64,000 nucleotides of DNA from Patescibacteria group bacterium (GTDB taxonomy: Bacteria > Patescibacteriota > Gracilibacteria > UBA1369 > PNNO01): assembly GCA_042568205.1 (NCBI GenBank), contig JBHPJE010000005.1:3267-67266 (forward strand), read 5' to 3'. A program made the translations under genes and the position numbers. This document shows, piece by piece, positions 9,034 to 45,735 of this stretch. How positions within the stretch are numbered: position 1 is the first letter of the stretch; the number at the start of each line of letters is the position of its first letter. Under the pieces are notes generated by a model. It was not told the DNA's origin. It ran no database searches and worked only from the letters and a program-made list of their open reading frames with translations.

Positions 9034-11610
9034 ATGCGTAAAATCACGATTACCCTCATGGCCATCCTGATGATGGCAGTAACTTCCACTCCTGCTCTCG
9101 CCTCGATCGATGAGTGCGAGACTGAAGACTGCGTGCCGGCTATGTCCGACACAGCACTCGAATTCCTGGCCTCCGACGGAACCCTCAAGGGTTCTGTGAC
9201 CTATGGCAGTGGTGCAGGAACTGTCTCCTCTAAAGATGGTTACTCTGTCATCGCGCGTACCAGCAACACAGATGTTGCTGTCGTGAACGTTGCTGGCAAT
9301 GGCACGTATTGCACCCTCAACGTCGGCTCCCCCAAGTACTCCACCGTGCTCAATGGCCATGTCTATGTGGTTAACTCTGGTGGCGACGAGGTGATTGAAG
9401 CAGACATGAACTGCAACAATCGTATCACGATCGCGGTGGGCAACAGTCCGCTTGGCATCACCACGGACGGTGTGTACCTCTACGTGGTGAACCAGCTCGA
9501 TGGAAATCTCACTCGAATCGACCCCGTCACTCACGCAGCTACTCCCCTCGACATCGGCGTAACTCAGCCTTTCGTTGACCAGCTTGCTGCTGTATGCTAC
9601 AACCCTGTAGTAGACGCGCTCTACGTGTCAACGGCCTGGGGCTTCAAGGAAATTCTACTTCCCGGCCTCAGTACCAACGACTGGGTACAGGGAACCTCCA
9701 TGACCGACATCAAGTGCAACGACACGCACGTACTGATCGGAACCAGCATGGCCGGTAACGCTTACCTGGTTCCCGTGGCCAACTTCAGCAACGCCGCTCC
9801 CTTGGGAACCCTCGGCCCCCGATCGGTGGCCCTCGGCCCCAACGACGCCTTTGTTTCACGTGGAACAGTCGACGGCATCGAGAAGTTCAACATGTCCGGC
9901 ACCTCGCAGGGCATGATCGCCTCGACCCTCTACTGGTCCATCAGCTACCTCGCCCCCACGGCTTCCCCTCCGGTCTGCCCCAACGGCACCATGGAAGGCA
10001 CCGAGGAGTGCGACGGCAGCGACTTCGGCATCGAGACCTGCCTGACGCAGAATTTCGACGGCGGCAGCCTCAGCTGTACCGGCACCTGTACGATCGACAC
10101 CTCCGGGTGCACGTATACGTGCGGCAACAACGTGGCTGCTCCGACCGAGGAGTGCGATGGCACGGACCACAAGGGTCAGGACTGTACGACTCTGGGTCTG
10201 GGTTTCACGGGTGGCACGCTTGCGTGCTCCGGCTGTTCGTTCGACACGAGCGGCTGCACCGTGGCTCCTACCTGCAACGACGGCAATGTCGACGCTGGTG
10301 AAGACTGCGACGGAGCGAATCTCGACGGCGCTACTTGTCAGTCCGAGGGCTACTTCGGTGGCACTCTGGCCTGCACCGGCGCCTGCGCGTTCGACTTTTC
10401 CGGCTGCACGAACTGCGGCAACGGCACTGCCGACGCCAGTGAGGACTGCGATGGCGCAGACCTCAACAACAACGAGTGCACGGATCTCGGCTTTGACAGC
10501 GGCACGCTCGCGTGCAACGTATCCTGCACTTTTGACACTGGCAGCTGCGTTCTCAACAGCTGCGGCAACAGTTTGATCGATAACGGCGAGACGTGCGACG
10601 ATGGCAACAACATGAGCAGTGACGGCTGCTCGAACGTTTGCCAAACTGAGCCTGGGTATGAGTGCTCCGGCACCCCCAGCGTCTGCACGCTCATCTGCGG
10701 CAACAACACCGTCGACACTGGTGAAGAGTGTGACGGTGACAATCTCAACGGCGCCACATGCGCTGACTTCGGTGGCGAGGGCAACCTGACCTGTAAGTCG
10801 GACTGTACTCTCGACACCAGCAGCTGCCTGGCGTGCAACGACCCGCAGATCGTGTACGACATCACGATCAACGACATCGATCAGGAACAGCTCAATGGGC
10901 ACAACGCCACGCTGTTCGCCAACAACCTCGGTGATCTCACTGAAGCTGACGGCGACCGCATCACCTGTGGCGACTTCGAAGTCGCAGGCGAGACGGTTCC
11001 GAGCGTGGTCGTGAGCCTGAATCCCGGTGAGTACAAGCTTGTGCGCATCTCGGGCAACGGCTCCACTGCCAACTGCATGGTCTTCACGAAGGCCTCCGAC
11101 GCCAAGTTGTATGTCAACATCTCGGATCCCAAAAAGACCCGACTGGAAGGCAGCGACGACGGATACGGCCTCATCTGCGTTCACGCGGGCGAGGACATGC
11201 AGTTCGAGATCGACGGGCTCCTCCTCGGAACCCTGGGTACGGCCCTGTCGTACCAGTACCTCACGTACAATCCGGAAGCCAAGGTGAATGGCAACTGGGC
11301 CGAAATCTACGTGAGCACTGATGGCGTCAAGCTCATCGAGCTCGAAGATCCCACCAATCGCTCCGGCGATCTCTTCGTGGCCTCCTTCACCAACGGCCCG
11401 AAGTATGTCAACCTCGACGCGAAAGGCGACCTGTCGGAAATCGGCCGCCTGCCCGTCGACCCGCCCGAAGGATGTTGCTCAACCGGCAAAACCGGCGCAA
11501 CTCCCCCCTACATTCCCCTCGGTCTTGTATTCCTCTTCCTTCTGTACGGCCTGTGGCGTTCGCGCCGCCGGTCCCTGCAGATGCAGAGGATCAAGAAGCG
11601 TGATCGCTAG
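9034..11610 (+). CDS. GC-rich surface protein: signal peptide, YVTN-like beta-propeller, myxobacterial-type Cys-rich repeats, MYXO-CTERM-like anchor
   Basis: VGNSPLGITTDG..LYVVN propeller blades; repeated CGNG..E.CDG.DL...TC...GF.GG.L.C...C..DTS.C; CDDGN..S.DGCS; C-terminal GCCST-TM-RSRRR. Confidence 0.88.
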   Translation: MRKITITLMAILMMAVTSTPALASIDECETEDCVPAMSDTALEFLASDGTLKGSVTYGSGAGTVSSKDGYSVIARTSNTDVAVVNVAGNGTYCTLNVGSPKYSTVLNGHVYVVNSGGDEVIEADMNCNNRITIAVGNSPLGITTDGVYLYVVNQLDGNLTRIDPVTHAATPLDIGVTQPFVDQLAAVCYNPVVDALYVSTAWGFKEILLPGLSTNDWVQGTSMTDIKCNDTHVLIGTSMAGNAYLVPVANFSNAAPLGTLGPRSVALGPNDAFVSRGTVDGIEKFNMSGTSQGMIASTLYWSISYLAPTASPPVCPNGTMEGTEECDGSDFGIETCLTQNFDGGSLSCTGTCTIDTSGCTYTCGNNVAAPTEECDGTDHKGQDCTTLGLGFTGGTLACSGCSFDTSGCTVAPTCNDGNVDAGEDCDGANLDGATCQSEGYFGGTLACTGACAFDFSGCTNCGNGTADASEDCDGADLNNNECTDLGFDSGTLACNVSCTFDTGSCVLNSCGNSLIDNGETCDDGNNMSSDGCSNVCQTEPGYECSGTPSVCTLICGNNTVDTGEECDGDNLNGATCADFGGEGNLTCKSDCTLDTSSCLACNDPQIVYDITINDIDQEQLNGHNATLFANNLGDLTEADGDRITCGDFEVAGETVPSVVVSLNPGEYKLVRISGNGSTANCMVFTKASDAKLYVNISDPKKTRLEGSDDGYGLICVHAGEDMQFEIDGLLLGTLGTALSYQYLTYNPEAKVNGNWAEIYVSTDGVKLIELEDPTNRSGDLFVASFTNGPKYVNLDAKGDLSEIGRLPVDPPEGCCSTGKTGATPPYIPLGLVFLFLLYGLWRSRRRSLQMQRIKKRDR

Positions 11611-11651
11611 TCCCCTCCAAGGGTGACTGACGATCCAATCCCACCTTTTAA

Positions 11652-11686
11652 CCCCCGGCCTGCAACATGCAAGCCGGGGGTTTTTT
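11652..11686 (+). terminator. GC hairpin terminator (CCCCCGGC family)
   Basis: CCCCCGGCCTGCAACATGCAAGCCGGGGG-TTTTTT. Confidence 0.9.
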
Positions 11687-11802
11687 CGTATATAAAATTA
11701 CTTAGATTGAATTTTATTCAATTGTTGTTTAAAATAAAACAACACTAAATGCTTTACAAAAACCAACTTAATTATTATTTTAACTTCCTAACCAGAAAAA
11801 TT

Positions 11803-12084
11803 ATGAATATTGCAGACTTCTTAAAAGCTATGAAAAATAGCCAAATCACGGGTGAATTTGACCTAAGTGATCATAAAGATGAATTGATGGACCGCGATTT
11901 TGAGGGAACTACTTTCAAAGATTGCGTAATCACTGGTGGAGACTTTGCTTCATCAGGATTCAATAACTGTACTTTTGAAAACGTGACATTCGATGGGAGT
12001 GCTCTGGTTGGAGTTACTTTCCAAGGATGCACAATGAACAATCTCGCATTTACGCAAACACAAACTGACTTTTCAATAAGTTAG
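11803..12084 (+). CDS. Small pentapeptide-repeat protein
   Basis: RDFEG TTFKD CVITG GDFAS SGFNN CTFEN VTFDG five-residue periodicity; ATG at 11803. Confidence 0.8.
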   Translation: MNIADFLKAMKNSQITGEFDLSDHKDELMDRDFEGTTFKDCVITGGDFASSGFNNCTFENVTFDGSALVGVTFQGCTMNNLAFTQTQTDFSIS

Positions 12085-12102
12085 TTGAAAGGAGAAAACC
12101 GA

Positions 12103-12372
12103 ATGAGTACTTGGACTGGATGGCGCAGTAAGCATGGCTTTCAAGAAAATGTCAAAGATGAGGGGATGTGGATGCATCTCTTGATCGCCCCACCGGACGA
12201 ACCCAATCCACGAGCCAACCATGTTCACGTCAAGATCCTGAAGGTGGTCATGCGTGCCAAGCGCTGGAACTACACCCTCTGCAGTGTGAAAGTGGAAGGG
12301 AACCGCATTCACAGCCGTCGTGACTTCATCCAGCGCATCAACGCCTGCACTGACCTCAATCTCTCCTACTAA
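12103..12372 (+). CDS. GC-rich small basic hypothetical protein, SD-led class
   Basis: SD GAAAGGAG 12087-12094 places the start at ATG 12103; C-ending codons; terminator follows. Confidence 0.7.
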   Translation: MSTWTGWRSKHGFQENVKDEGMWMHLLIAPPDEPNPRANHVHVKILKVVMRAKRWNYTLCSVKVEGNRIHSRRDFIQRINACTDLNLSY

Positions 12373-12414
12373 TTAGCACATACCCTCCTCGGAGCAGTTC
12401 TCGCTTAAAACCAG

Positions 12415-12449
12415 CCCCCGGCTTGCAACATGCAGGTCGGGGGTTTTTT
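12415..12449 (+). terminator. GC hairpin terminator (CCCCCGGC family)
   Basis: CCCCCGGCTTGCAACATGCAGGTCGGGGG-TTTTTT, near-identical to 11652-11686. Confidence 0.9.
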
Positions 12450-12460
12450 CATATCCCGAC

Positions 12461-12489
12461 GAAAGGACTTTCCTGAGGAAAGTCCTTTC
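12461..12489. repeat. Perfect 14-bp inverted repeat
   Basis: GAAAGGACTTTCCT-g-AGGAAAGTCCTTTC. Confidence 0.8.
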
Positions 12490-12533
12490 CCCACCCTCTT
12501 CCCAAACCCCAAAAATCATGGTATAATAATACA

Positions 12534-14477
12534 ATGCAAAAAATATACAAAAAAATCGCTATAAGCCTCGCAATTGGCGCCCTAGCAGCAATCATAGCTA
12601 TCGCGCTATCTATTGTAAATCCTTTAAATAATTGGCATTTAAAACTCGCTGACTCACTTTATACTCAACAAAATCCTTCTGATCAAATTGTAATAATTGC
12701 TATTGATGAAAAGTCTATTTCAAGCGAAGAACTCGGACGCTTTTATGATTGGCCGCGAACAAATCATGTTCAAGTTCTCGATAATCTTCAAAATACAAAG
12801 GCTATTGGAATCGATCTTTTTTTCACTGAGGAACAAGAGACCATAACGCGCCAAGAACTTTTAAAAACACAAAATCTTGAAATTTATGATCCTTTTCTTT
12901 CTCATCCAAATGATCTAAAACTCGCAGAAGCTCTAAATGATAAAACTACAATTGCGCGAATTGAACAGGATCCAAACTTGAAAATATTTGAAGAGAAAGC
13001 CAATATCGGCACCGTGAATATAGCTGCTGATGCAGATGGAATTGTAAGACGCATGAATCCAAAAGACTCATTCGCCTCGGTTATCAGCGGTGTGAATCCA
13101 CCTCAAGAAGAAATGCTTATCAATTATTTTGGGGATCCGAATTCATATAAAAGGATCTCTTATTCTGATGTTTATAATGGAAATCACGACCCGCAAGAGC
13201 TCCAGGACAAAATCGCTTTAATCGGCATAACAACGCCAAAAGTAGCACAAGACCACAAGCCAACTCCAAAAAATACAGCTCAACCAATGCCAGGAATTGA
13301 AATTCATGCGAATGCAATTCAAACGATGATGGACGGAGAATACATTGAAAATCAGTCAACAACTTCACAAATTGCAATCATAGTCGCTATCTCATTAATA
13401 CTCGCTTTAGCCCTGTCCTTCTTAAATATCTGGATCGGAATCGGAGTAACGGTTGCAGTCTCGACAATTTATTATGGATCCGCTCACCTCGCATATAATA
13501 ATGGATTAATCCTTAATTTGATCTACCCATTTATAGCAATCGCACTTACTTATTTTGGAGTAATTTTGTACAGATATTTTGCAGAATTACGCGAGAAAAA
13601 GTACGTAAAAGGCGCATTTGGACGGTATTTAAGTCCATCAGTAATGTCGTCAGTTTTGGACAATCCAGAACATTTACATTTAGGAGGGACCAAGCGAGAA
13701 GTCACTGTTTTCTTCACAGATATTAAAGGCTTCACAACAATCTCAGAACAATTTGAACCAGAAATTTTGATAGGAATAGTGAACGAATATCTAACTGCAA
13801 TGACCGACATAGTTATGCAAAACGAAGGCACTTTGGACAAATATGTAGGAGACGCGATTGTGGCTTATTTCGGCGCTCCAATCGACCAACCAGACCATGC
13901 AAAACGCGCTTGCGAAACAGCCCTACAAATGAGAGAAAAACTAGCAGAATTAAATACAAAATGGAAAACAGAAGGAAAGCCTGAACTCGACTTCAGAGTC
14001 GGAATCAATACAGGACAAGTAATCGTCGGTAACGTTGGATCAGAAAAAAGATTCGACTATACAATAATGGGCGACGAAGTAAATTTAGGATCAAGATTAG
14101 AAGGCGCAAATAAAAAATACTCGACCAACATTATGATTTCAGAATCAACTCGCATGGTTGTCGGAAATGGCTACGACATGCGGGAATTAGACATTTTGAA
14201 AGTTAAAGGAAAACAAAAACCAGTGCGAGTTTTTGAATTAATGGCAAGGCCAGGAATGCTTAGCGAAATCGGCCGAAATCTAATGGCTCCATATAATAAA
14301 GGTCTGGAGCTATACCGCGCGCGAAAATTTGACCTTGCAGTCGGCGAATTCGATAAAGCTCTACGAATTTACGCAGAAGACGGCCCTTCTAAAATATACA
14401 AACAACGCTGCGAAGTACTGCGAGATTACCCTCCGCACGATGATTGGGATGGCGTGTTTGAGATGCATACGAAATAG
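12534..14477 (+). CDS. CHASE2-domain class III adenylate cyclase with C-terminal TPR-like region
   Basis: IVIIAIDE, WPR, DADGIVRR, MPGIEIHANAI (CHASE2); 3 TM; FFTDIKGFT, DKYVGD, GDEVNLGSRLE. TATAAT lies 6 nt before the ATG, so probably leaderless. Confidence 0.93.
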   Translation: MQKIYKKIAISLAIGALAAIIAIALSIVNPLNNWHLKLADSLYTQQNPSDQIVIIAIDEKSISSEELGRFYDWPRTNHVQVLDNLQNTKAIGIDLFFTEEQETITRQELLKTQNLEIYDPFLSHPNDLKLAEALNDKTTIARIEQDPNLKIFEEKANIGTVNIAADADGIVRRMNPKDSFASVISGVNPPQEEMLINYFGDPNSYKRISYSDVYNGNHDPQELQDKIALIGITTPKVAQDHKPTPKNTAQPMPGIEIHANAIQTMMDGEYIENQSTTSQIAIIVAISLILALALSFLNIWIGIGVTVAVSTIYYGSAHLAYNNGLILNLIYPFIAIALTYFGVILYRYFAELREKKYVKGAFGRYLSPSVMSSVLDNPEHLHLGGTKREVTVFFTDIKGFTTISEQFEPEILIGIVNEYLTAMTDIVMQNEGTLDKYVGDAIVAYFGAPIDQPDHAKRACETALQMREKLAELNTKWKTEGKPELDFRVGINTGQVIVGNVGSEKRFDYTIMGDEVNLGSRLEGANKKYSTNIMISESTRMVVGNGYDMRELDILKVKGKQKPVRVFELMARPGMLSEIGRNLMAPYNKGLELYRARKFDLAVGEFDKALRIYAEDGPSKIYKQRCEVLRDYPPHDDWDGVFEMHTK

Positions 14478-14478
14478 C

Positions 14479-14608
14479 TTGACTTTTTATCTAAAATATG
14501 TCACAATTCACCTCTTGATAGGCTCTTTGGCAAATCAGGGTTATATTACCCTGGAACGGAAACACACACCCTTATTAGCGCATTAGGACGCGCCAAAACG
14601 AGGATACG
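14479..14608 (+). promoter_or_regulatory. Promoter plus leader with boxA-like motif
   Basis: TTGACT-17-CACAAT (extended TG); GGCTCTTTGGCAAAT 14521-14535; CAGGGT/ACCCTG hairpin; GAGGA 14600-14604. Confidence 0.65.
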
Positions 14609-15634
14609 ATGAAAACCATGAAGATGATCGCAGTGCTGTTCTTGCTTGTTTCTGTCGGCTGCGGATCGCGCAGCGTCGGTCACAACAACAACGTGAACGA
14701 CAATAACACCAACGAGAACACGAACGTCAACGACAACACTAACGTCAACACCAACACCGGCCCCGAGTGCCTCACCTTCCGCATCATGGTCAATGACACA
14801 GTGGAGGAAGAGCTCGAGTATGAGCAAGACTTCACTCGTCCCTGTCTGCTCGACTACCTGGACGTCGAAATCAGCCCCGAATGGCACCGTCTGTGTCACA
14901 ACATGATGATCCTGGCTGACATCAGAGCCCCGCAAGAAGGCTACCCCGACGGCACGCTCAAGCCGGACGAATGCATGCTTAAGGCTGAGGTCTGGCACAT
15001 GCAACTCCGTACCCTCGGCCTCATCATGTTCCCACAAGGTGCACCTGGTGACGACGTGGACCAGAGCGACTGGTACGCCGGCGCCATCGGCAACTTCGCC
15101 CGCAAAGGCTTCATCACGCCCGATGATGACAACATGGTCTACCCCGCCGACATCATGACCCTGGAGGAATGGAACGTCTGGAAATCGCATATGATCGCCT
15201 GGCTCAACATGGGCCTCATCCGCATCGACTTTCTGGAAGTCCTGCTGACCTCCCTGCTGAGCGGACCCACCTACGACGTGCTCGACTGCGTCAGTGAGGA
15301 ATTCGACGACATCGAAACGAACTCATTCGAGTGCGTGCTCACCAACACCGCTATTGACTACGGTCTAATTGACGGCTACCAGATGAGCTTCCGACCCCTC
15401 GACTCACTCAACTGGGCTGAGATGGTGAAGATGTCGATGCAAGCGAAGAACATCCCCGACTCCGAAAACTTCACCTGCTGGAATCACTGCGACGAAGGCG
15501 AATGGTACTGCGGATCGATTAACGCAGCCTGCGAACTAGGCCTGCTTCCTCCCGGCCTCACCAACGCTGGCGACATCCCCACCCGCCTCGAAGCGTTCAG
15601 GTTCCTCCAGCTGATGGAGATGCTGAACCTCTAG
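14609..15634 (+). CDS. GC-rich lipoprotein with Asn-rich linker and degenerate SLH-like repeats
   Basis: Lipobox VSVG|C; NNNVNDNNTNENTN linker; WY..AI....KGFI, GLIDGY..SFRP...LN.AE..KM and WY...INAA.ELGL....TRLEA motifs. Confidence 0.78.
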   Translation: MKTMKMIAVLFLLVSVGCGSRSVGHNNNVNDNNTNENTNVNDNTNVNTNTGPECLTFRIMVNDTVEEELEYEQDFTRPCLLDYLDVEISPEWHRLCHNMMILADIRAPQEGYPDGTLKPDECMLKAEVWHMQLRTLGLIMFPQGAPGDDVDQSDWYAGAIGNFARKGFITPDDDNMVYPADIMTLEEWNVWKSHMIAWLNMGLIRIDFLEVLLTSLLSGPTYDVLDCVSEEFDDIETNSFECVLTNTAIDYGLIDGYQMSFRPLDSLNWAEMVKMSMQAKNIPDSENFTCWNHCDEGEWYCGSINAACELGLLPPGLTNAGDIPTRLEAFRFLQLMEMLNL

Positions 15635-15690
15635 CGCGAAGCGCCCCCCTGTGTTTCCCTCCTATAACACCTGTCTGCCTCCCTACCAAA

Positions 15691-15726
15691 AAAGACCCGC
15701 CATCAGAAATGATCGGCGGGCTCTTC
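15691..15726. terminator. Hairpin terminator between convergent genes
   Basis: AGACCCGCCATCA-gaaa-TGATCGGCGGGCTCT. Confidence 0.7.
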
Positions 15727-15739
15727 AATATATATTAAT

Positions 15740-16297
15740 CTAAGCTCTTTCCACGTAATCCCCAGTATCTGTATTCACTCGCACTTTTTCACCTTCAGCT
15801 ATAAATAAGGGTACTTGAATCACTTTTCCAGAATCCAAAGTTGCAGCCTTTTTTCCACCACTAACTGTATCCCCTTTAACTCCAGGTGTTGTTTCAACAA
15901 CTTCAAACACCATTTTTGGAGGTAATTCGATTGAAATCATAGTTCCTTCAAAAAACACACCATCAACTGTTGATCCATCTAACAAATACTCAACCGAGCC
16001 CTCAATAACGTCTAAAGCAACCTCGAATTGCTCGTATGTTGATTCATCCATAAAAAAGGCTGCAGAGTCGTCTTTGTATAAATATTGAACCTTGCCGCGA
16101 TTAACCTGCGCTATTTCAAAATTTTCACCAGATAAGAAAGTTTTATCTAAAGTTGCACCTGTTTTAACGTTCTTTAATTTCGACTTCATAACCGGCTTTT
16201 GGGCTTCTTTTCGCTTAAATTCGCTCCAGGTAATAATATAAGGATCACCATTTAATTTAACAATTCGGCCTTTTGTAAGATCAGTAAGATTTCCCAT
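15740..16297 (-). CDS. efp: Elongation factor P
   Basis: G.IVKLNGDPY, KLKNVKTG, QYLYKD, FMD..TYEQ, PGVKGDT, VPLFI..GE..RVNT..G.YVERA; true start MGNLTDL at 16297. Confidence 0.95.
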   Translation of the reverse strand: MGNLTDLTKGRIVKLNGDPYIITWSEFKRKEAQKPVMKSKLKNVKTGATLDKTFLSGENFEIAQVNRGKVQYLYKDDSAAFFMDESTYEQFEVALDVIEGSVEYLLDGSTVDGVFFEGTMISIELPPKMVFEVVETTPGVKGDTVSGGKKAATLDSGKVIQVPLFIAEGEKVRVNTDTGDYVERA

Positions 16298-25799: not shown

Positions 25800-26444
25800 A
25801 TGCGACTAATCGAAGCAGTAGCTGTAAGCGGGCTCTTCACCCTGTTCTCCGCCAATGCGTTTGGCAACCCGCGGCCCAAAAACGGAGACGATCCCGTCTC
25901 ATGCGTTCAGGTGGTGGGCGACGGCGAGTATCTCCTTAGCATGCCCGAGGGGGCTGCACTTCCTTGCCGCTTTGTGGCAAACGAAGCAGGGACATTCGTA
26001 CGGTTGGATTGGGGCGAGATGATCGTCACACGTGAGAATAGCATCCTAAAGCGCGGTGCCGCCCGCGTGTATACAGCCGGGATACCTTTCTCAATCATGG
26101 GGGACCAAGTTCACCTTATAGAAACTGATAACACTGTAGACGTGGTAGTCGACAGCGACCTCACGTATATCCTCTCGAAAGAGGGGTGCGCAGAAGTAGT
26201 CAGTTGCTATGAGGCAGGTACAGAGCAAGGCGAATCCTACTTCCTCGAAGAGGGAGATCTTCTCGTACTACGTCGGAGTGGCGCGGTTTACGCGTGGGAA
26301 GATGTAGAAGGGAAAAGCCGCGTTCCACGCGGAGGATGTTCGACTGCTCATGATACGAACGTTGGGACTGTTCCAGAAGGTTTCACATGGTTTCTCTTTT
26401 TGGCTGTTTGGCTCTGGTTTAGGCGACGAAGCTCTTCGGAGTAA
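25800..26444 (+). CDS. GC-rich exported protein with MYXO-CTERM-like anchor (possibly FecR-like beta domain)
   Basis: Signal peptide ending ANA; beta-rich body; C-terminal GGCST...FTWFLFLAVWLWF-RRR. Confidence 0.78.
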   Translation: MRLIEAVAVSGLFTLFSANAFGNPRPKNGDDPVSCVQVVGDGEYLLSMPEGAALPCRFVANEAGTFVRLDWGEMIVTRENSILKRGAARVYTAGIPFSIMGDQVHLIETDNTVDVVVDSDLTYILSKEGCAEVVSCYEAGTEQGESYFLEEGDLLVLRRSGAVYAWEDVEGKSRVPRGGCSTAHDTNVGTVPEGFTWFLFLAVWLWFRRRSSSE

Positions 26445-28944: not shown

Positions 28945-29415
28945 TTAATATTCGCAACCTGCTAAACCAGCAAGTTTAGCTAAAGCCGTGTTTCCTTCTT
29001 GCACAGTACCATCTGCAAATATCCAAGTTGGAACAGATGTTACGTCAGCGTCTTTACAAGCCTGTGCCCATCCATCACCATCTGCACATTCTGTGTGATC
29101 TAAATATTCTAACCCATCAGCAAATGCTGCTTTTTGATTTTTACAATGCCCACACCAACTTGCTGTATAAAGTTTTGCTCCATTTTCTGTAAGACATTTT
29201 GCAAGTACTACTTCTTTTGATTCTGAATCTGCTGCTGCATCTTCAGGAGTGTCTTCAACCTCAGGTACATCAACATCAATGATTGGATCTTCTACAACTG
29301 GATCTTCTGTAACTACTGAATCTTCTCCTGACGGAAGTTCTGCAGGTGCTTGAAACCAGTTACATCCTACTAATAAAAATACTGAAATTATTGAAATTAT
29401 AGCTAATTTTTTCAT
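28945..29415 (-). CDS. Thioredoxin-fold lipoprotein (WCGHC)
   Basis: MKKLAII...LLVG|C lipobox; LAKCL...GAKLY.ASWCGHC..QK..F; VPTW. Lies between pheS and pheT. Confidence 0.85.
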   Translation of the reverse strand: MKKLAIISIISVFLLVGCNWFQAPAELPSGEDSVVTEDPVVEDPIIDVDVPEVEDTPEDAAADSESKEVVLAKCLTENGAKLYTASWCGHCKNQKAAFADGLEYLDHTECADGDGWAQACKDADVTSVPTWIFADGTVQEGNTALAKLAGLAGCEY

Positions 29416-29416
29416 A

Positions 29417-30457
29417 TTAAAATTGGTTAACAAATCTAAGGTCGCCACTTAAATTGTGACGTATATCATCGATGCCGTGACGCATCATTACTAAGCGGGT
29501 CAAACCAAAACCAAACGCCCAACCTTGCCATTTTTTAGGATCAATTCCACCAGATTTAAGTACATTTTCATGAACCATTCCTGCTCCCATAAATTCTACC
29601 CATCCGGTTTTCTTACAAACTCTGCAGCCTTTGCCTTCGCAAATTAAACAAGAGAAATCCACTTCTAATCCTGGCTCCACAAACGGGAAATATCCAGGTC
29701 TAATTCTTACTTTCACCTCTCTGCCAAATAATGTTGATAGGAATTGTTTAAGTACACCTTTAAGGTGTGAAATTGAAATATGTTTATCGATCATAAGGCC
29801 TTCTACCTGATAAAACGTTGTGTCGTGCGATGCATCTGTTGCTTCGTAACGGAAAGTTCTTCCAGGAACAATAACGCGAAGAGGAGCACCATACTTTTCC
29901 ATTGTTCTAACCTGAACCGGAGATGTGTGAGTGCGGAGAACCATTCTTCCGTGCTTTTTATCCTCTTTATCCTTGATGAAAAATGTATCTTGCATGTCTC
30001 TCGCTGGATGCCACGCAGGAATATTAAGGCCTTCAAAATTATAATATTCTGATTCTGCTTCCGGACCATCCATTATCATAAATCCCATGCTTGTGAAAAT
30101 GTCTTCAACTTCTTTTTGAACCTGAGAAAGCGGATGGATATGCCCTTTTTGACGATCAGGGCCCGGGGCAGTCACATCAAACGTTGGATCTTCTAATTGC
30201 GCATTCAGACTTTTTGATTCGATCTGATTTTTTTTATCTGCGATCGCCTGTTCAAGTTCGTTTTTGATTTCATTTGAAAGTTTTCCTATAACTGGTTTTT
30301 CAGAATTGCTAAGATCTTTAACTCCTCTAAGGATATTTGTTAATTCTCCTTTTCTTCCAATAAATTTAACTTCAACTTCCTGAAGCTGGGCTGTGTCAGT
30401 AGCTTTTGAGATTGCATCAAGGCATTCTCTCTTTAATTTTTCGAGTTGTGGGATCAT
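29417..30457 (-). CDS. pheS: Phenylalanine-tRNA ligase alpha subunit
   Basis: HPARDMQDTF, LRTHTSPVQ, YFPFVEP, GWAFGFGL.RL; start MIPQLE at 30457. Confidence 0.97.
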   Translation of the reverse strand: MIPQLEKLKRECLDAISKATDTAQLQEVEVKFIGRKGELTNILRGVKDLSNSEKPVIGKLSNEIKNELEQAIADKKNQIESKSLNAQLEDPTFDVTAPGPDRQKGHIHPLSQVQKEVEDIFTSMGFMIMDGPEAESEYYNFEGLNIPAWHPARDMQDTFFIKDKEDKKHGRMVLRTHTSPVQVRTMEKYGAPLRVIVPGRTFRYEATDASHDTTFYQVEGLMIDKHISISHLKGVLKQFLSTLFGREVKVRIRPGYFPFVEPGLEVDFSCLICEGKGCRVCKKTGWVEFMGAGMVHENVLKSGGIDPKKWQGWAFGFGLTRLVMMRHGIDDIRHNLSGDLRFVNQF

Positions 30458-30623: not shown

Positions 30624-30744
30624 TTGACTTCAAATATCTTAATATATATATTCTTCGACTGGTGCTTCTATAGTAATCAAGGCAACAACCACGTTGGCGC
30701 TTGATTACACAAGCGCTGACAATTGACACATGGGAGATAGAACA
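30624..30744 (+). promoter_or_regulatory. Promoter plus structured leader
   Basis: TTGACT-17-TATATT; GTAATCAAG/CTTGATTAC and GCGCTTG/CAAGCGC stems; GCGCTGACAATT; SD GGGAGA 30732-30737. Confidence 0.62.
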
Positions 30745-31083
30745 GTGAGTGACATTGCATACAAACACCTTGTTGGAGGCGTTCATGGGCAATCAGCCGT
30801 GGACGCCATAATAAGCAGAGCTAATTTGGCGATCATCCCAGGGCGAGAAGCTCTGGAAGCCAGTAAGCTTATGGTTCGGATCGGCGCCAATGAGTGGCGA
30901 CTGAGCCTGGTGAGCGCCCCTAATGCCAAGCAGGCCATTCAAGCCGCAAGACGTAAATGCGGCAAAAATGTGGTCACTCCGGAATTTCTGCTCAAACAAG
31001 ACGAAGGTCTGTTCTGGAGTATGAAGTTCCACTACACGGACGAGTTCCGGCGATTCCTTGCCGGCGACATCGGCGCGCTTTAA
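30745..31083 (+). CDS. GC-rich small hypothetical protein, SD-led class
   Basis: GTG at 30745 is 7 nt after GGGAGA (ORF track starts at ATG 30730); C-rich 3' UTR and hairpin follow. Confidence 0.65.
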   Translation: MSDIAYKHLVGGVHGQSAVDAIISRANLAIIPGREALEASKLMVRIGANEWRLSLVSAPNAKQAIQAARRKCGKNVVTPEFLLKQDEGLFWSMKFHYTDEFRRFLAGDIGAL

Positions 31084-37983: not shown

Positions 37984-38010
37984 AGTACTCAGTCATCGCG
38001 AATGACTCGG

Positions 38011-39633: not shown

Positions 39634-39715
39634 CGGACACGAACGTTAGTGAGTGTCTCGCGAGCGAAAACTTATCGCGAGCCAAGCGTGAGTCCGCCTT
39701 GGCGGACGAACTCCT
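39634..39715 (-). repeat. About 82-bp palindromic interspersed element, copy 1 (intergenic)
   Basis: AGGAGTTCGTCCGCCAAGGCGGACTCACGCTTGGCTCGCGATAAGTTTTCGCTCGC...; homologous to 60616-60698. Confidence 0.88.
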
Positions 39716-41119
39716 TTAAATTTTATACCAATCCAAGTTAACTTCTGGATATTTCTTAAGTTGATCAACCATAATTTCCTGAATCTCAGCTAACTTTTCT
39801 TCAGACTCGGCTTCAAATCTTAATGTAAGATTAGGAGATGTATTCGAACATCGAACAGCTCCCCACGCTGTGTCTGAAAAATTGATTCGGACACCATCTA
39901 AAGTTGAACAATCATAATTTTCAGTAAAATAATCTGTTAATTCCCGAACAATACCAAACTTTCTATCGTCTGGTGTGTGAGCTTTGAATTCGGGAGTCAT
40001 AAAAGTATGCATAACATCATCAAATAAATGACTAAAGCTCACGTCTGACTTTGATAAAATTTCTAAAAGCTTTGCAGCCCCTAAAAATGCATCATCAAAT
40101 CCATAATAATCTTCTCCAAAAAATAAATGCCCACTAACTTCACCAGCTAATGGCGCACCAATTTCTTTCATTTTTGCTTCAATGAACGAATGACCAGTCT
40201 TACACATAACTGGCTCACCGCCGTGCTTCTTAATATCATCAATAAGAGCAAGAGAAACCTTAACATCGAATACAACTTTTGCTCCAGGTTGCCGTGTTAA
40301 TAAGTCACGCGCCAAAAGCATTAGTAAAAAATCTGCTGAATAATGATGTCCTGTTTCATCAACCACACCAACTCGATCACCATCTCCATCAAATCCAAGA
40401 CCAATGTCTGCGCCGACCTCTTTAACTTTTGCAATTAGGTCGACCATGTTTTCATACTCTTCTGGATTCGCCTCATGATTTGGAAAATTACCATCAAGTT
40501 CACAATAAAGTTCAGTGACTTCGCAGCCAATTGCTCTTAAAACTTCTGGTGCGAAAGCTCCGGCAGTTCCATTTCCTGCATCGACTACGACTTTTAAAGG
40601 CTTTTGCAGGTCAACTTTCGAAGCAAGTTCTGTTTTGTAATCTTCAAAAATATCACGTTCGGTTAGCGTGCCTTCTCCTTCTGCAAATTCTCCACTTTCG
40701 ATTATTTTAACAACCTCTTGCAAGTCATCTCCACAAACTGAATGAGCATCCTTGCTTACGATTTTTATTCCATTATATTCTTTTGGATTGTGGGAAGCTG
40801 TGATATTTGCTCCGCCATCGAATCCATATTTGCATACTGCATAATAAAGCATTGGTGAAGGAGATATGCCAATATCTGTCACATCACATCCGGTTTCTAA
40901 AAGGCCTTCGATATATGCTTTTTGAAGATCCGGCGAATGAAGACGATTGTCTCGTCCAACAACTAAATTCTTGCCACTGATTTTTTGAAGATATGTTCCT
41001 GCTCCTTTTCCAATTAATTTACAAGTTTCTGGTGTTAGGTCTACTTCCGGAAATTGTTCAGTTGCCTGTGCGATTCCGCGAATATCATACGCACGAAAAA
41101 TATGAGAATTGACTTTCAT
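39716..41119 (-). CDS. Phosphomannomutase/phosphoglucomutase
   Basis: IFRAYDIRG, TASHNP, FDGDGDR, GEVSGH, VRCSNTSP. Confidence 0.95.
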   Translation of the reverse strand: MKVNSHIFRAYDIRGIAQATEQFPEVDLTPETCKLIGKGAGTYLQKISGKNLVVGRDNRLHSPDLQKAYIEGLLETGCDVTDIGISPSPMLYYAVCKYGFDGGANITASHNPKEYNGIKIVSKDAHSVCGDDLQEVVKIIESGEFAEGEGTLTERDIFEDYKTELASKVDLQKPLKVVVDAGNGTAGAFAPEVLRAIGCEVTELYCELDGNFPNHEANPEEYENMVDLIAKVKEVGADIGLGFDGDGDRVGVVDETGHHYSADFLLMLLARDLLTRQPGAKVVFDVKVSLALIDDIKKHGGEPVMCKTGHSFIEAKMKEIGAPLAGEVSGHLFFGEDYYGFDDAFLGAAKLLEILSKSDVSFSHLFDDVMHTFMTPEFKAHTPDDRKFGIVRELTDYFTENYDCSTLDGVRINFSDTAWGAVRCSNTSPNLTLRFEAESEEKLAEIQEIMVDQLKKYPEVNLDWYKI

Positions 41120-41166
41120 GTGTGTCTGTTAAATTTTGGAGTTGTACTATAGCAGCATTCTCCGCT

Positions 41167-41673
41167 TTAGGCAATCATTTTCAAGCGCTCAACGCCTTTC
41201 CATTTTTTAATCAATTCTGCGACCTTTGGATGGACGTCGTCGACCCAGGTCTTATCGCCTTTGAGCATTTTTTCACGGACCAAAGTTCCATGAACTTCGA
41301 AGTTGAAATCGAGTGATGCGATTTCGTATTTTCCATAAGATTGATAAAGTTCGCGGACAATTTGAGAACCTGTGTAAACCTTATAAACTGGAGGGATATA
41401 TTGATCAACATGCGCAGTCCAAAGCATGAAATTTTTAACATTTCGCACAGGAATAATTACGTATTTATCTCTATCTATCCCAGAAGCGCCAAGTGCAACT
41501 TCAATCATTTGAAATCGTTCGCCGGCAGTGAATGGATTTGCAGGCTCATTGTTTTCTTCGGCAGATCCAATTACAAGCACCACGCGGTCTTCATTTTCAA
41601 GCATCGACTTAATAGCATCAAGATGCCCATTATGGAATGGCTGAAATCGTCCTACAAATAAAGCTTGTTTCAT
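41167..41673 (-). CDS. nadM: Nicotinamide-nucleotide adenylyltransferase (NadM type)
   Basis: VGRFQPFHNGH, IGSA, NPFTAGER, GTLVR. Confidence 0.9.
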   Translation of the reverse strand: MKQALFVGRFQPFHNGHLDAIKSMLENEDRVVLVIGSAEENNEPANPFTAGERFQMIEVALGASGIDRDKYVIIPVRNVKNFMLWTAHVDQYIPPVYKVYTGSQIVRELYQSYGKYEIASLDFNFEVHGTLVREKMLKGDKTWVDDVHPKVAELIKKWKGVERLKMIA

Positions 41674-42416
41674 TATCTAGGGATTATGAATGGTACTTCT
41701 AATTTATGTGCATTGTCGCGAATTCGTTTAAACACCGATCGAACTGTCATCGGATTCATTCCCTTTTCAATCAAAACTTCTTCTCCTTCTTCAAGTTTAC
41801 CAAGAATCATATCGAGATCTTTATATGATGCTCCTAGTTCTGCTTCGTCAGTTTGGCCAGGCCATAATTCAGCTGATGGTGGCTTTTGAACAATCTCTTG
41901 AGGAAGTTGCAAAAATTCAGCTAGTTCAACAACTTCAGTTTTATATAAAGAACCAATTGGTAAAAGGTCAGCAGCGAGATCTCCGTGTTTTGTTCCGTAT
42001 CCAAGCATGAGTTCGCTTTTGTTTGAAGTACCGAGTACTAACGCACGATTTGAATTTGCATAATTATAAAGAAGGTTTGCTCGCACTCGGGCCTTAGTGT
42101 TTGCGAGTGCGATGTCTTGTTGTTTCCAAGGCACAGTTAGATAGTCGACTAAATAATTACTGATCTGAACTTTATAATTTTCTGTTCCTAAAAATTCAGC
42201 TAATCCAACTGCGTGCTTTGTATTTTCTGAACTCGTAACTCCACTTTCCGGCATTACTAAAGCACAAACATTGTCTCCTCCCAATGCATCAACAGCGAGT
42301 TTTAGTACTACTGCAGAATCCAATCCACCTGAAACTCCTAGAACTCCTCGCTTAAATCCAGCTCCACTAAAGTATGCTTTTGTTCCTTCAACCAGTGTTG
42401 TGTATAGTTTTTCCAT
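41673..42416 (-). CDS. nadE: NH3-dependent NAD+ synthetase
   Basis: GVSGGLDS, N.KARVR, GTSNKSE..LGY.TK.GD, KPPSAELW.GQTDE; start MEKLY at 42416. Confidence 0.93.
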   Translation of the reverse strand: MEKLYTTLVEGTKAYFSGAGFKRGVLGVSGGLDSAVVLKLAVDALGGDNVCALVMPESGVTSSENTKHAVGLAEFLGTENYKVQISNYLVDYLTVPWKQQDIALANTKARVRANLLYNYANSNRALVLGTSNKSELMLGYGTKHGDLAADLLPIGSLYKTEVVELAEFLQLPQEIVQKPPSAELWPGQTDEAELGASYKDLDMILGKLEEGEEVLIEKGMNPMTVRSVFKRIRDNAHKLEVPFIIPR

Positions 42417-42420
42417 GTTG

Positions 42421-42867
42421 TTATTTTCGTTTAAGGGCGCGTGCAATGTCAAGATTTTGATCGCGTTTTTTTAGATCCGCTCGTTTATCATAGAGTTTTT
42501 TTCCTCTTACCAATCCGATTTTTAGTTTGATGAGGCCTGCTTTTGTGTACATTTCTAATGGTACGCAAGTTGTTCCGGTTTCATTTAGTTGTTTTAAAAT
42601 TTTGAGGATTTCTTTTTCGTGAAGAAGAAGTTTTCGTTTTCTTGTTGGATTTGGATTGCTTTTATTGGCGAATTTATATGGAGAAATATGCGCATCGTTA
42701 AGCCAAACTTCATGTTTTGAATCAATATCAACATAACTCCCTTTAAGATTGCAATTTGATGCTTTGCAGGATTTTACCTCAGGTCCAAGCAGCGCAATTC
42801 CAGCCTCGAAAGTGTCGAGAATTTCATAATCGTGGAAAGCCTTTTTATTTTTTGAGAGAGAGGGCAT
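42421..42867 (-). CDS. smpB: SsrA-binding protein
   Basis: NKKAFHDY, EAGIAL.G.EVKS, RKLLLH, GKKLYDKR. Confidence 0.97.
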   Translation of the reverse strand: MPSLSKNKKAFHDYEILDTFEAGIALLGPEVKSCKASNCNLKGSYVDIDSKHEVWLNDAHISPYKFANKSNPNPTRKRKLLLHEKEILKILKQLNETGTTCVPLEMYTKAGLIKLKIGLVRGKKLYDKRADLKKRDQNLDIARALKRK

Positions 42868-42933
42868 ATGGAAATTTATAAGTTGCGTTTTAGTTTAGTC
42901 ATTTTTTGGCTTTCAAATCAAGAGGATTATGCA

Positions 42934-43047
42934 TATAATAGCTTCCCAAGCTTCGCTTGACTAAAACAATGAGCGAAGTATTGCTCATTGAAAAAATACG
43001 GCCAAAAACACAAATGAAAACTGATCGAAAGAAGGAGGACTGTTATT
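42934..43047 (+). promoter_or_regulatory. Promoter (-10) plus leader with boxA-like motif and SD
   Basis: TATAAT 42934; TGCTCATTGAAAA 42982-42994; SD AAGGAGG 43032-43038. Confidence 0.68.
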
Positions 43048-45735
43048 ATGAGATGTTTTGTTATGGCATTTCTGGTTGGCATCATGATGCTGGCTGGAGC
43101 AACCACGGCGAGAGCGGACCTTCCGCCTGCGCCTGAACAGTGTGCGTCGCAGGGATGCTTCGCAATCCAGGGTCAGACCCATCTCTACCTCGACCGGAAA
43201 GGAGTCGAGAAAGGACCGATCGCCCTGCCCGTCACTGGTGAAAACACCCTCAGGTATTCAAACGGATACCTCGTGGGGACTTGGAATGTCTCCAATGTCA
43301 TGTGGCTATATCACGTCGAAACTGGTACACAGTGCACTCGTGACGTTGGGATAAGCTGCAAAGAGGGAGTGGTGTTTGGAGGGTATGCATTCGCTGCCTG
43401 CCCAAGCAATTCCTCCACCGTGAGGATGGCGCTCGACTGCACCTCGCACGACACGTTCCCTGGTGGAGCCTTCCAGAATCCTGAGACCTTGAGCTTATCT
43501 AGCACCGAAGTGATCTTCGGATCCAACGGGAATAACCGCGTCGGACACTTCGATCCGGTTAACCCGAGCCTGGCCAACGCCTACGGCACCGGCCTGACAA
43601 ACCTCATGTACGTCAGGTACCATGCCGGAACTTCGAAGGTGTACTTCAACGGTAACGATGGTCTCCCCGGGATCTTCTTCAAGGACTATCCCCTGACCGG
43701 AGTGTTCACTTCGCAGAACCTGCTCTACCTACCAGTCAACACACGGTTCCTGTCCATCAACGATACACACCTCTTCGCCTCCTCGTATATCTCGGAAGCC
43801 TACCTGGTGGACATCGTGAACCAGACCTACATCACGCTCGCCATGAGCGAGTCGCGTGCGAACGCACTGTCTTCTGACACCGCGTATGTCGTGGATGTGG
43901 GCATCGATATCGTGACCCGTGCCTACGACCTGCAAGGTAACGAGAAAAGTTACTCACCCTTGCCGGTGGCTGGCTACTCCATCGCTTACATTGAGCCCCA
44001 TGTGGCACCGGTGTGCAACAACGGGCTCATCGAGCCTGGCGAGATCTGCGATGGTAGTGACTTTGACGGCGCAACTTGCGCCGACCATGGTTTCGATGGC
44101 GGCGAGCTCGGGTGCAACCTGAGCTGCGACGCGATCAGCACCATCAACTGCTACGGCTGTGGCGACGGCGTGTTGAATGCCAGCGAAGCCTGCGATGGTA
44201 GCGACCTCGGACCCGAAACCTGCGTGGACTACGGTTACGCAAGCGGCGACCTGAGCTGCAACTCAAGCTGCGAGCACGACACCTCCGACTGCTACACCTG
44301 TGGCGACGGATTCATCGAAGGCGCCGAACAGTGCGAGTCCAACGATCTCAACGGCGGCTCATGCACTTCCGAGGGATTCGTCGCTGGCACAATTGCCTGC
44401 GGCACCGACTGCATGTACGACACGTCCAACTGCACTTCCTGCGGTGATGACGTGATCAATGGCAGTGACATCTGCGACGGCAACGCCATCAACGACGTCT
44501 GCCAGACTCTGGGCATGGGCTTCACCGACGGCACACTCGCGTGCAACAGCACTTGCGACGACTACAACACTTCCGGCTGCACCACGTGCGGTGACGGAAA
44601 TGTAGATCCCGGCGAAGAGTGCGACGGCAACGACCTCGACCAGGAGAACTGCCCGGGCCTCGGATTCACCGGCGGCAACCTCAACTGCTACGCCAACTGC
44701 ACGTACGACACGTCTCAGTGCAACGGCGCACCGATCGAGATCTGTGGCAACAACGTCATCGATCCCGGCGAAGAGTGCGACGACGGCGACCGCCTGAACG
44801 GCGACGGGTGCGACGAAAACTGCATGAACGAACCCGATCCCGTCCTCTGTGGCAACAACATCATCGAAGGCATCGAGGAGTGTGACGGTACCGAACTGGG
44901 TGGCGTCAGCTGCGAAAGCCTGGGCTACAACACTGGCGTGGTGTACTGCGAGAACAACTGCAGACTCAACGTCAACTGCAGCTTCAACAACTTCCAGCCC
45001 GCCAGTCTCAACGTCGAACCTGGTGCGCAACCGCCCCCCGGAGCCTTCACTCCGGAGCAGACGGAAACCTTCGAAGAGATCACCGATGGTCTCACCGAGT
45101 CCTGCATCCCGTCCATGGATGGCAGCGACCTGATCATGACCACGCCCGAAGACGGCTACTGCCCGATCGAGCTGAACTTCGGAGGCATTGAGCCTTCCCT
45201 GAAGTCCAAGCAGGGCAAGGTCTTCATCATGATCTACAAACCTACCAACTCGCTCAACAACGAGAACGCTGTCGTTCGCATCAAGCCGAGCGGCGAGTTC
45301 AACATCGAGAGCGGTGGACATATGAGAGCTCAGCTCTGGGTGACGCCGACCATCACGTTCGACAACAACGCCCTGACTGAGACCACCGAAGCAAGCATGA
45401 GCCTTCGCATGGAACTCCTGTCGGTCCACCCGGATCCGCCGGAGGACACCGATCCGAATGGCCGCTTCCTTCTCGTCGAGATTGCCACGGGCCTGGGCAC
45501 ATACTGCTCCAGTTCCGGCACCTGCGCTATCGTCCCGAGTGGCGGTGTGCATGTGCTCGATCTCGACAACCTCGACGACTCCCTGGGGGACATCGGCCGT
45601 ACCCCCAAGAAGTCCAGTGGCTGCTCCATCGCGGGAAGCAGCTCCAACAACTCAGAAATTCCCGCGTTCATCATGGTGATCATGCTGATCCTGGCCATTC
45701 GCATTCGACGGCAGAAGAAAGCCGCGAATCGATAG
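43048..45735 (+). CDS. GC-rich surface protein, paralog of 9034..11610 (propeller-like head, Cys-rich repeats, MYXO-CTERM-like anchor)
   Basis: Signal peptide ending ARA; CG(D/N)G...E.CDG.DL repeats; CDDGD..NGDGC; C-terminal SSGCS-TM-RIRRQKK. Confidence 0.88.
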   Translation: MRCFVMAFLVGIMMLAGATTARADLPPAPEQCASQGCFAIQGQTHLYLDRKGVEKGPIALPVTGENTLRYSNGYLVGTWNVSNVMWLYHVETGTQCTRDVGISCKEGVVFGGYAFAACPSNSSTVRMALDCTSHDTFPGGAFQNPETLSLSSTEVIFGSNGNNRVGHFDPVNPSLANAYGTGLTNLMYVRYHAGTSKVYFNGNDGLPGIFFKDYPLTGVFTSQNLLYLPVNTRFLSINDTHLFASSYISEAYLVDIVNQTYITLAMSESRANALSSDTAYVVDVGIDIVTRAYDLQGNEKSYSPLPVAGYSIAYIEPHVAPVCNNGLIEPGEICDGSDFDGATCADHGFDGGELGCNLSCDAISTINCYGCGDGVLNASEACDGSDLGPETCVDYGYASGDLSCNSSCEHDTSDCYTCGDGFIEGAEQCESNDLNGGSCTSEGFVAGTIACGTDCMYDTSNCTSCGDDVINGSDICDGNAINDVCQTLGMGFTDGTLACNSTCDDYNTSGCTTCGDGNVDPGEECDGNDLDQENCPGLGFTGGNLNCYANCTYDTSQCNGAPIEICGNNVIDPGEECDDGDRLNGDGCDENCMNEPDPVLCGNNIIEGIEECDGTELGGVSCESLGYNTGVVYCENNCRLNVNCSFNNFQPASLNVEPGAQPPPGAFTPEQTETFEEITDGLTESCIPSMDGSDLIMTTPEDGYCPIELNFGGIEPSLKSKQGKVFIMIYKPTNSLNNENAVVRIKPSGEFNIESGGHMRAQLWVTPTITFDNNALTETTEASMSLRMELLSVHPDPPEDTDPNGRFLLVEIATGLGTYCSSSGTCAIVPSGGVHVLDLDNLDDSLGDIGRTPKKSSGCSIAGSSSNNSEIPAFIMVIMLILAIRIRRQKKAANR

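Follow-up and report, generated by a model that had tools for sequence, protein, structure and literature searches.

The window analysed here, a 64,000-nucleotide stretch of patescibacterial DNA (positions 3267-67266 of contig C38 in assembly G000, which comprises 1.16 Mb in 42 contigs and is 88% complete), encodes three proteins, here called P0001, P0002 and P0003, that each end in a short tail built around a Cys. We judge it probable, at roughly 0.6, that the three are resident surface proteins of a Peregrinibacteria-like patescibacterial cell, held by this C-terminal Cys anchor, and that the tail is an inherited trait of this order of the Candidate Phyla Radiation (CPR) that requires neither an outer membrane nor type II secretion. 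In the proposed mechanism, each protein would be exported by Sec via an N-terminal signal peptide and anchored, facing outwards, in the cytoplasmic membrane of the cell itself by a tail made of a Gly-Cys motif, a single membrane-spanning helix and Arg residues clustered on the cytoplasmic side. The two large paralogs, P0001 and P0003, would each present a beta-propeller head on a stalk built from six to seven disulfide-rich repeats, and the small P0002 would adopt a FecR/PupR-like sensor fold. The conserved Cys may be lipidated, Lgt being present in G000, and the helix may then be removed by a membrane protease; a CPBP-type enzyme would be the leading candidate where one is present and need not be required everywhere.

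The proteins were compared with an order-level sample of 101 patescibacterial genomes from 19 families and a family-level sample of 13 genomes. Two comparison genomes recur below: G059, which belongs to the same family and genus and is a single contig, and G009, which belongs to another genus of the family and is 100% complete.

Architecture of the proteins and their tails

All three genes lie on the forward strand, and each product has a signal-peptide-like N-terminus, as judged by eye. In P0001 (9034..11610; 858 residues) the signal peptide is followed by a head (9103..9975, residues 24-314), a Cys-rich stalk (9976..10836, residues 315-601) of about six repeats by Cys spacing, a C-terminal domain and a tail (11458..11607, residues 809-858) with a PPEGCCST motif, a helix and RSRRR; its C-terminal end contains PPEGCCSTGKTG, a hydrophobic stretch and RSRRR. 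P0003 (43048..45735; 895 residues) is laid out similarly, with a beta-propeller head (43117..44013, residues 24-322), a stalk of about seven repeats by the same measure (44014..44979, residues 323-644), a mostly beta, sandwich-like C-terminal domain (44980..45597, residues 645-850) and a tail (45598..45732, residues 851-895) in which an SSGCS motif (..KKSSGCSIAG..) precedes a helix and RIRRQKK. P0002 (25800..26444; 214 residues) consists of a signal peptide, an all-beta domain and a tail (26316..26441, residues 173-214) with an RGGCST motif (..RGGCSTAH..), a hydrophobic helix and RRR. The three reading frames ending in G-C-[CS]-[ST], a hydrophobic helix and an Arg cluster that a preliminary description of this DNA had pointed out were thus borne out.

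The same description had called the two large proteins paralogs, and this holds. Their heads are homologous (E=7e-10, 23% identity across 326 columns), both have Cys-rich stalks, and both carry the junction D..IGR.P...GC. Downstream of the stalk, P0001 and P0003 can be aligned only at the junction and tail (E=0.028), so the junction is real, yet the domains of about 200 residues before it are not detectably alike. The stalks also match the repeat models that had been named for them. TIGR02232 matches all 19 aligned family members and passes its cut-off of 20.8 bits in both window proteins (45.4 bits in P0001, 30.6 in P0003), and DUF4215 passes its cut-off of 27 bits in P0001 (31.9) and not in P0003 (19.1).

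The P0003 structure was modelled with AlphaFold from a 19-row alignment, giving a mean predicted local distance difference test score (pLDDT) of 77.8. The model predicts a confident all-beta head (pLDDT about 85-95), a moderately confident stalk, a confident beta domain (about 80-90), a low-confidence linker bearing the tail Cys (below 50 at residues 851-873) and a terminal helix at residues 871-894. With Foldseek, the head matched 1l0q_A, an archaeal S-layer protein's YVTN propeller (E=1.1e-11, TMt 0.60), as well as 3dsm, which is a surface-layer protein from Bacteroides (TMt 0.68), and propellers of the LDL-receptor family. The P0001 head shows a weak YVTN repeat match of its own, at 18.1 bits and under the cut-off. 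The likeness to YVTN surface-layer propellers and LDL-receptor-family ectodomains lies in the head fold (E 1e-11, TMt 0.60-0.68) and in the pairing of a propeller with small disulfide-rich modules. Unlike in those proteins, the anchor here is a Cys tail, and no sequence relation is detectable; a PDB sequence search with the head and with the P0003 C-terminal domain returned nothing under E=0.19. The model of P0002 (pLDDT 74.2) is similar in fold to C-terminal domains from anti-sigma regulators of the FecR/PupR type (E 5.5e-5 to 6.7e-4, TM 0.44-0.50). These models suggest that the large paralogs may be adhesin- or receptor-like, with a binding head held off the membrane by a disulfide-rich stalk. 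A thioredoxin-fold protein with a hydrophobic N-terminus (28945-29448, reverse strand) is encoded between pheT and pheS in G000, G059 and G009. It may be an extracytoplasmic disulfide oxidoreductase, which would be relevant to proteins with about 50 cysteines.

The tails had been likened to MYXO-CTERM, the sorting signal modelled by TIGR03901 (curated cut-off 20 bits). Within the window this match is borderline. P0001 scores 21.1 bits with the tail alone, 20.3 in a six-frame search and 14.5 as a whole protein; the P0002 tail alone reaches 12.4 bits and the P0003 tail gives no match, nor do whole P0002 and P0003. Orthologs score higher. In six-frame searches, 6/13 family genomes exceed the cut-off, with 29.1 and 23.3 bits for P0003 orthologs, 27.5 for P0001 and 20.8 for P0002. 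TIGR03901 is also the best-matching sorting model, with 11 of 19 family members at E<=1 as compared to three weak matches for JDVT-CTERM.

The critical residues of the tail are strongly conserved. All 17 full-length P0003 homologs retain it, Cys C859 and Pro P853 (P0003 numbering) are invariant in all 19 aligned family members, and G858 is nearly so. P0002 has four database homologs, together with syntenic orthologs beside pheT in G059, G009 and G027, and among its relatives G179, C180, R209 and R210 are invariant (8/8). A hidden Markov model (HMM) trained on the family's tails was run against 5686 stop-to-stop open reading frames (ORFs) of G000. It found P0001, P0002 and P0003 at E 1e-19, 3e-10 and 1e-9, values that are circular because these three were in the training set, and the next best match was at 0.01; no further tails were found among these ORFs. 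PEP, PGF, PEF and LPXTG-like motifs are absent from all three tails. The tripartite anatomy and the ortholog scores support placing the tails in the MYXO-CTERM class of Cys-containing tripartite signals. G000 also holds separate LPXTG-like tails (C34:45444-48158, C37:1294-2100 and C42:13107-13562, all on the reverse strand), with PQTG, LPETG and AKSG followed by a helix and RRK, and a single sortase gene (C1:215130-215561). The cell therefore appears to run at least two C-terminal anchoring signals.

Lineage, inheritance and codon usage

The genome is CPR-like, as had been proposed from the window alone. Named relatives of its PheS are Patescibacteria group bacteria (80% and 77% identity), Candidatus Peregrinibacteria (71% and 70%) and Candidatus Gracilibacteria (71%). 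The assembly is small, and the genomes of relatives measure 0.7-1.9 Mb. The expectation that such a cell lacks an outer membrane stands as far as gene content shows. Neither Omp85 nor a secretin was found in any of five genomes searched (G000, G059, G009, G064 and G001), three of which are complete or near-complete. A 3980-bp contig of G000 (C27; GC content 0.585) encodes a 392-residue protein whose end resembles an outer-membrane beta-barrel; this contig may be a binning contaminant.

All three genes occur in the same order among the same neighbours in G059 and G009. The conserved arrangements are a pilin-like operon followed by P0001, a penicillin-binding protein gene followed by P0002 and pheT, and smpB followed by P0003 and a giant ORF. 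By tblastn with 20 window proteins, no synteny was seen in 79 named loci that had matched outside the family. Upstream of each gene lies an AT-rich region of its own, and each is followed by a strong terminator hairpin. A consensus scan placed a promoter-like site upstream of P0001 (8813..8840, forward strand; TTGACA, a 16-nt spacer and TACAAT, with TG; 11/12 consensus matches). On the same strand, a hairpin with a U run follows P0001 (11650..11682; -31.9 kcal/mol over an 80-nt stretch, z=-4.2), and a hairpin with U8 follows P0003 (45767..45807; -35 kcal/mol, z=-6.9), where none of 200 shuffles folded as well. Conserved synteny, separate AT-rich upstream regions and terminators together point to vertical inheritance of working genes, and not to contamination or fresh import.

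P0003 relatives are confined to the window's family, occurring in 5/9 other members and in 0/91 genomes of 18 other families. Searched against 1.84 billion representatives, the head domain was matched 11 times; ten of the matched proteins share the layout, two of them lacking the C-terminal domain. A second scan of metagenomes yielded 16 loci, five of which were inspected (L137, L138, L139, L143 and L147). L137 and L138 repeat the chromosomal place of P0003, and L143 (GC content 0.69) and L147 contain stalk-like matches only. A metagenome scan with the head alone produced 89 pattern matches, none of which was confirmed. The tail itself is more widespread. At E<=0.01, TIGR03901 matched 33 of the 101 order genomes, 24 of them over cut-off and from 12/19 families, and none of 14 control genomes. 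Thirteen matched loci were inspected by eye; nine showed clear Cys, helix and RRR ends on unrelated proteins, and four failed the filter. Relatives have one to four TIGR03901 matches per genome, as compared to three tails in G000. Tail-bearing genes elsewhere in the order are often of native composition, with a GC content at third codon positions (GC3) of 0.19-0.41.

The three window genes are of a different composition. Their GC3 is 0.75 (P0001), 0.54 (P0002) and 0.76 (P0003), with third-position C at about 0.53 in the two large genes, as compared to a genome median of 0.22 (961 ORFs) and 0.15-0.35 in flanking genes. The same holds for the orthologs in G059 and G009 (0.57-0.72, against 0.17-0.55 for other genes of these regions) and for L137, L138 and L139 (0.77, 0.77 and 0.51). 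GC richness sets in with the start codon, the promoter region being AT-rich. At sites with identical residues, the two large genes and housekeeping genes alike use the same codon in 0.47-0.55 of cases, against 0.41-0.49 expected if randomised; for the two large genes by themselves the values are 0.47-0.54 and 0.41-0.47, and for P0002 they are 0.29-0.36 and 0.31-0.32. Synonymous sites are thus near saturation between genomes, and a relic of transfer should therefore have decayed.

Folding was compared with synonymous-codon shuffles that preserve both the protein and its codon usage. P0001 (z=-4.9) and P0003 (z=-5.2) fold in excess, with none of 25 shuffles folding as well, and P0002 gives z=-1.8. 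Orthologs in G059 and G009 reach z=-6.9 and -8.0, whereas control genes, among them a GC3-rich SLH gene (-0.06), lie between -0.7 and +1.8. The P0001 head shows no excess (z=-0.1). The excess is present on both strands (z -7.2 and -5.1 for P0003, -3.7 and -3.8 for P0001), so causes at the RNA and DNA levels are not separable. Something keeps these genes GC-rich and self-complementary across genera. Translational selection was considered and is unlikely, given the GC3 of EF-P (0.30) and HU (0.20), and codon usage does not single out a donor, because Peribacteria, Peregrinibacteria and Polyangia loci all fit. Literature searches on codon usage or GC3 in the CPR returned nothing relevant.

Other genes and features of G000 bear on its codon usage or adjoin the three genes. 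Aragorn found 27 tRNAs, including Leu-CAG, Lys-CTT and Gln-CTG; the matching G-ending codons are rare in most G000 genes (in housekeeping genes, CTG makes up 3% of Leu and AAG 15% of Lys codons). Genome-wide, 37/961 ORFs have a GC3 of at least 0.48, some of them spurious. Foreign-looking single genes in the window include the SLH gene mentioned above (14609-15634, forward strand; GC3 0.79, 341 residues, lipoprotein-like), which is missing from the same place in G059 and G009, as well as 4849-5262 (reverse strand; 0.83), 12085-12372 (forward; 0.65) and 30730-31083 (forward; 0.56). At the start of contig C6 (4-2069), two ORFs with Asp/Cys calcium-type repeats have GC3 values of 0.88 and 0.72.

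Window neighbours are otherwise housekeeping genes (pheST, topA, efp, smpB, nadE and a class A penicillin-binding protein), together with the type IV pilin-like genes, a DUF5678 protein and two giant ORFs. The four-gene pilin-like operon (5452-8807, forward strand) lies directly upstream of P0001, and two of its products have prepilin-type N-termini (KGFLLVE and KGFTLVE). This arrangement, which is kept in G059 and G009, is reminiscent of minor-pilin operons with a large tip adhesin encoded behind them. The giant ORFs (45897-56393 and 56401-60579, forward strand; 3498 and 1392 residues) follow the P0003 terminator, have native AT-rich codon usage and gave no Pfam match; this arrangement is kept in G059, G009 and L137. 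The hairpin after P0001 has a near-identical copy about 760 bp downstream (12413-12445, forward strand). Between them lie a pentapeptide-repeat ORF and a GC-rich ORF of 95 residues missing from this place in G059, and the whole looks like a small terminator-bounded insertion. Near the left end of the window, 792-1421 (forward strand) encodes a NikA-like mobilisation protein domain (E=7e-11).

Processing enzymes and competing explanations

A candidate for the resident processing enzyme that the preliminary description had suggested looking for was located only in relatives. A CPBP gene is present in 11/13 family genomes, yet none of the products reaches a myxosortase cut-off and none was found in G000. 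In the G000 assembly no CPBP (PF02517), rhomboid or exosortase gene was found, and tblastn with the G059 enzymes against it likewise found nothing. In G059, the family's CPBP gene lies four genes beyond a clpB-like gene whose ortholog in G000 runs into the end of contig C6. Because the syntenic place lies just past that end, the absence of CPBP from G000 may be an assembly gap. The relatives' CPBPs reach no myxosortase model, scoring 14-26 against the 100 bits of Mrt_core (NF040914), 39-54 against 130 for MrtS and 35-41 against 75 for MrtJ. Across the order CPBP occurs in 64/101 genomes (22/33 tail-positive and 42/68 tail-negative); there is no clear enrichment in tail-positive genomes, and CPBP does not track the tail. 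Among the 11 tail-positive genomes without CPBP, a tail was seen by eye in seven (G000, G064, G082, G001, G070, G078 and G005), including G064 and G001, each a single contig, and G082, which is 100% complete, and was not confirmed by eye in G051, G055, G011 and G096. An exosortase-family gene that passes TIGR04178 lies about 450 bp from a family member ending in a GCGC-type tail in G077. These observations, together with the marginal scores of the window's own tails, weigh against a Cys anchor of the MYXO-CTERM kind as proposed above.

Other membrane enzymes were also surveyed. Rhomboid was found in none of 11 genomes tested. PrsW-family membrane proteases occur in 101/101 order genomes with one to five matches each, three of them in G000; PrsW was rejected as a specific partner since its ubiquity makes co-occurrence uninformative. 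According to the available portion of PMC11980579, an Lgt-like enzyme is proposed to lipidate the Cys of MYXO-CTERM before a CPBP enzyme cuts, and some uncleaved protein still gets to the surface. Either a CPBP route or an anchor that stays uncleaved, or is cleaved in another way, would be compatible with this.

If no cleavage takes place, the tail could be a plain C-terminal membrane anchor, in which the helix and Arg cluster hold the protein and the Cys serves for a disulfide to a partner or for lipidation without cleavage. The confirmed tails of G000, G064, G082, G001 and G005, where neither CPBP nor exosortase was found, speak for such an anchor, as do the failure to find rhomboid where it was tested (G000, G001, G064 and G082) and the partial arrival of uncleaved MYXO-CTERM protein at the surface (PMC11980579, available portion). 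However, an invariant Gly-Cys with a Pro six residues upstream (19/19) exceeds the needs of a stop-transfer anchor, the model that the tail matches was derived from signals that undergo processing, and with PrsW-family proteases in every genome a protease is never lacking. We regard a plain anchor as rather unlikely. It is much less probable that the tails are processed by the exosortase/archaeosortase-family enzyme of some relatives. The gene pair in G077 is what recommends this idea, but such enzymes occur in only 4/13 family genomes, 12/101 order genomes and 5/33 tail-positive genomes, and G009, which is complete and has three tails, is without one. In G040 (L116, G040:C1), moreover, the exosortase/archaeosortase-family gene (1477-2418, reverse strand) adjoins a gene for a 216-residue protein (2513-3163, forward strand) that ends in PVPEF, a helix and KK. 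This PEF-like tail was judged by eye, the PEF-CTERM model giving no match, and suggests that the enzyme has a substrate of its own.

Two further explanations place the origin or target of the proteins outside the lineage. The contrast in GC3 between the three genes and the genome would fit a recent horizontal import from a GC-rich donor, either Myxococcota or GC-rich Peregrinibacteria, that left the tail as a non-functional relic, and other GC3-rich single genes of G000 that are not shared with G059 do look imported. Such an import is improbable for the tail-bearing genes, whose orthologs stand at the same places in G059 and G009 with GC3 of 0.57-0.72, whose synonymous sites are almost saturated, like those of housekeeping genes, whose GC-rich stretch starts at the start codon behind an AT-rich promoter region and whose tail Cys is invariant (19/19). 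The preliminary description had suggested that the host or prey may be a myxobacterium-like cell, with the proteins displayed on its surface or mimicking it; the tails would then be aimed at such a cell. Stalk matches outside the family are indeed mostly to Myxococcota (35-45% identity across about 36% of the query), the GC-rich codon usage fits Polyangia loci, and no myxosortase-grade enzyme was found in G000. However, GC-rich loci of Peribacteria and Peregrinibacteria are no worse a fit to the codon usage, and the stalk also matches Peribacteria, Omnitrophota, Spirochaetia and archaeal metagenome-assembled genomes. Most of the Myxococcota-type stalk matches listed have no Cys tail, and neither the head nor the protein as a whole shows any tie to Myxococcota. 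In the three family genomes compared, inheritance of the genes has been vertical and their synteny is kept, and the proteins come with their own Sec signal peptides, promoters and terminators. The tail is found in a third of the order (33/101), often on genes of native composition, and the head is almost exclusive to this family. A route of delivery into a host periplasm is not known. In the literature searched, as far as the sources were available, no Peregrinibacteria were linked to such signals, and none of the titles and abstract openings listed named Myxococcota as their host; neither a pairing of Peregrinibacteria with a sorting signal nor one of Patescibacteria with myxosortase, CPBP, C-terminal sorting or archaeosortase was found. 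The host interpretation is thus unsupported, and we consider it most improbable. The premise that the tail needs an outer membrane also fails, since the available portion of the Haft preprint describes a sister signal, CGP-CTERM, in the archaea Thermococcus and Pyrococcus.

Relation to known sorting systems and implications

A resident, C-terminally anchored set of proteins invites comparison with MYXO-CTERM itself (TIGR03901; myxosortases MrtX, MrtC and MrtP; Myxococcota and Bradymonadales). In both, an invariant Cys, frequently within GC or C-x-C, precedes a helix and a cluster of Arg residues; the proteins concerned are exported by Sec and in many cases have Cys-rich repeats, and the model matches orthologs of the window proteins over cut-off. 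The systems differ in that there are one to three clients per genome here, as compared to 6-43 in Myxococcales (Haft preprint, available portion), and that the five genomes searched show no outer membrane or secretin, no enzyme reaches any Mrt model and CPBP does not track the tail. In its available portion, the same preprint places MYXO-CTERM in Myxococcota and Bradymonadales, treats matches elsewhere in a 5846-genome set as false singletons and contains no mention of Patescibacteria, Peregrinibacteria or candidate phyla. It also describes Cys-containing tripartite tails outside the myxobacteria, including in archaea without a bacterial outer membrane, namely CGP-CTERM/MrtA of Thermococcus and Pyrococcus, JDVT-CTERM/MrtJ and Synerg-CTERM/MrtS. 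MrtS and MrtJ are the best-scoring named sorting proteases for the relatives' CPBP-A. Those systems have different sequence models and, in the portion available, a strict co-occurrence of enzyme and signal that is not seen here.

In the case of the large paralogs, a likeness to TraA had also been noted. TraA, the kin-recognition receptor of Myxococcus xanthus, has a head, a Cys-rich repeat stalk and a Cys tail in this order. The available portion of PMC11980579 gives the same architecture. The layout is analogous. The differences are that Pfam found no PA14 domain, the head here is a YVTN-type propeller, an extra domain of about 200 residues precedes the tail and no TraB-like OmpA partner occurs among the neighbours.

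The patescibacterial tails represent a new setting for a MYXO-CTERM-class signal, with one membrane, few clients and no myxosortase-grade enzyme. A broader proposal, which we put forward tentatively, is that the Patescibacteria of this order may run their own Cys-anchoring pathway, with a MYXO-CTERM-class signal that needs neither outer membrane nor type II secretion, and that within the window's family selection may hold the client genes of different genera to a coding regime of their own, rich in GC and strongly self-complementary. At least five genomes with tails, three of them complete or nearly so, were without CPBP and exosortase, and four of these were tested and were without rhomboid. 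For these tails, cleavage or lipidation would fall to an enzyme of a type so far without a link to protein sorting; the ubiquitous PrsW-type protease, or Lgt alone, could be examples.

CPR bacteria live attached to other cells, and how their attachment proteins are built and anchored is little understood. A Cys tail in about one-third of the sampled genomes of this order would provide a simple sequence handle for listing anchored surface proteins. The codon usage and folding of the three genes caution against taking every GC-rich island in an AT-rich CPR genome for a recent transfer. If the tails act as proposed, they would extend a sorting signal of Myxococcota and Bradymonadales to cells with one membrane, and the question of which enzyme processes such tails without a myxosortase-grade CPBP becomes testable.

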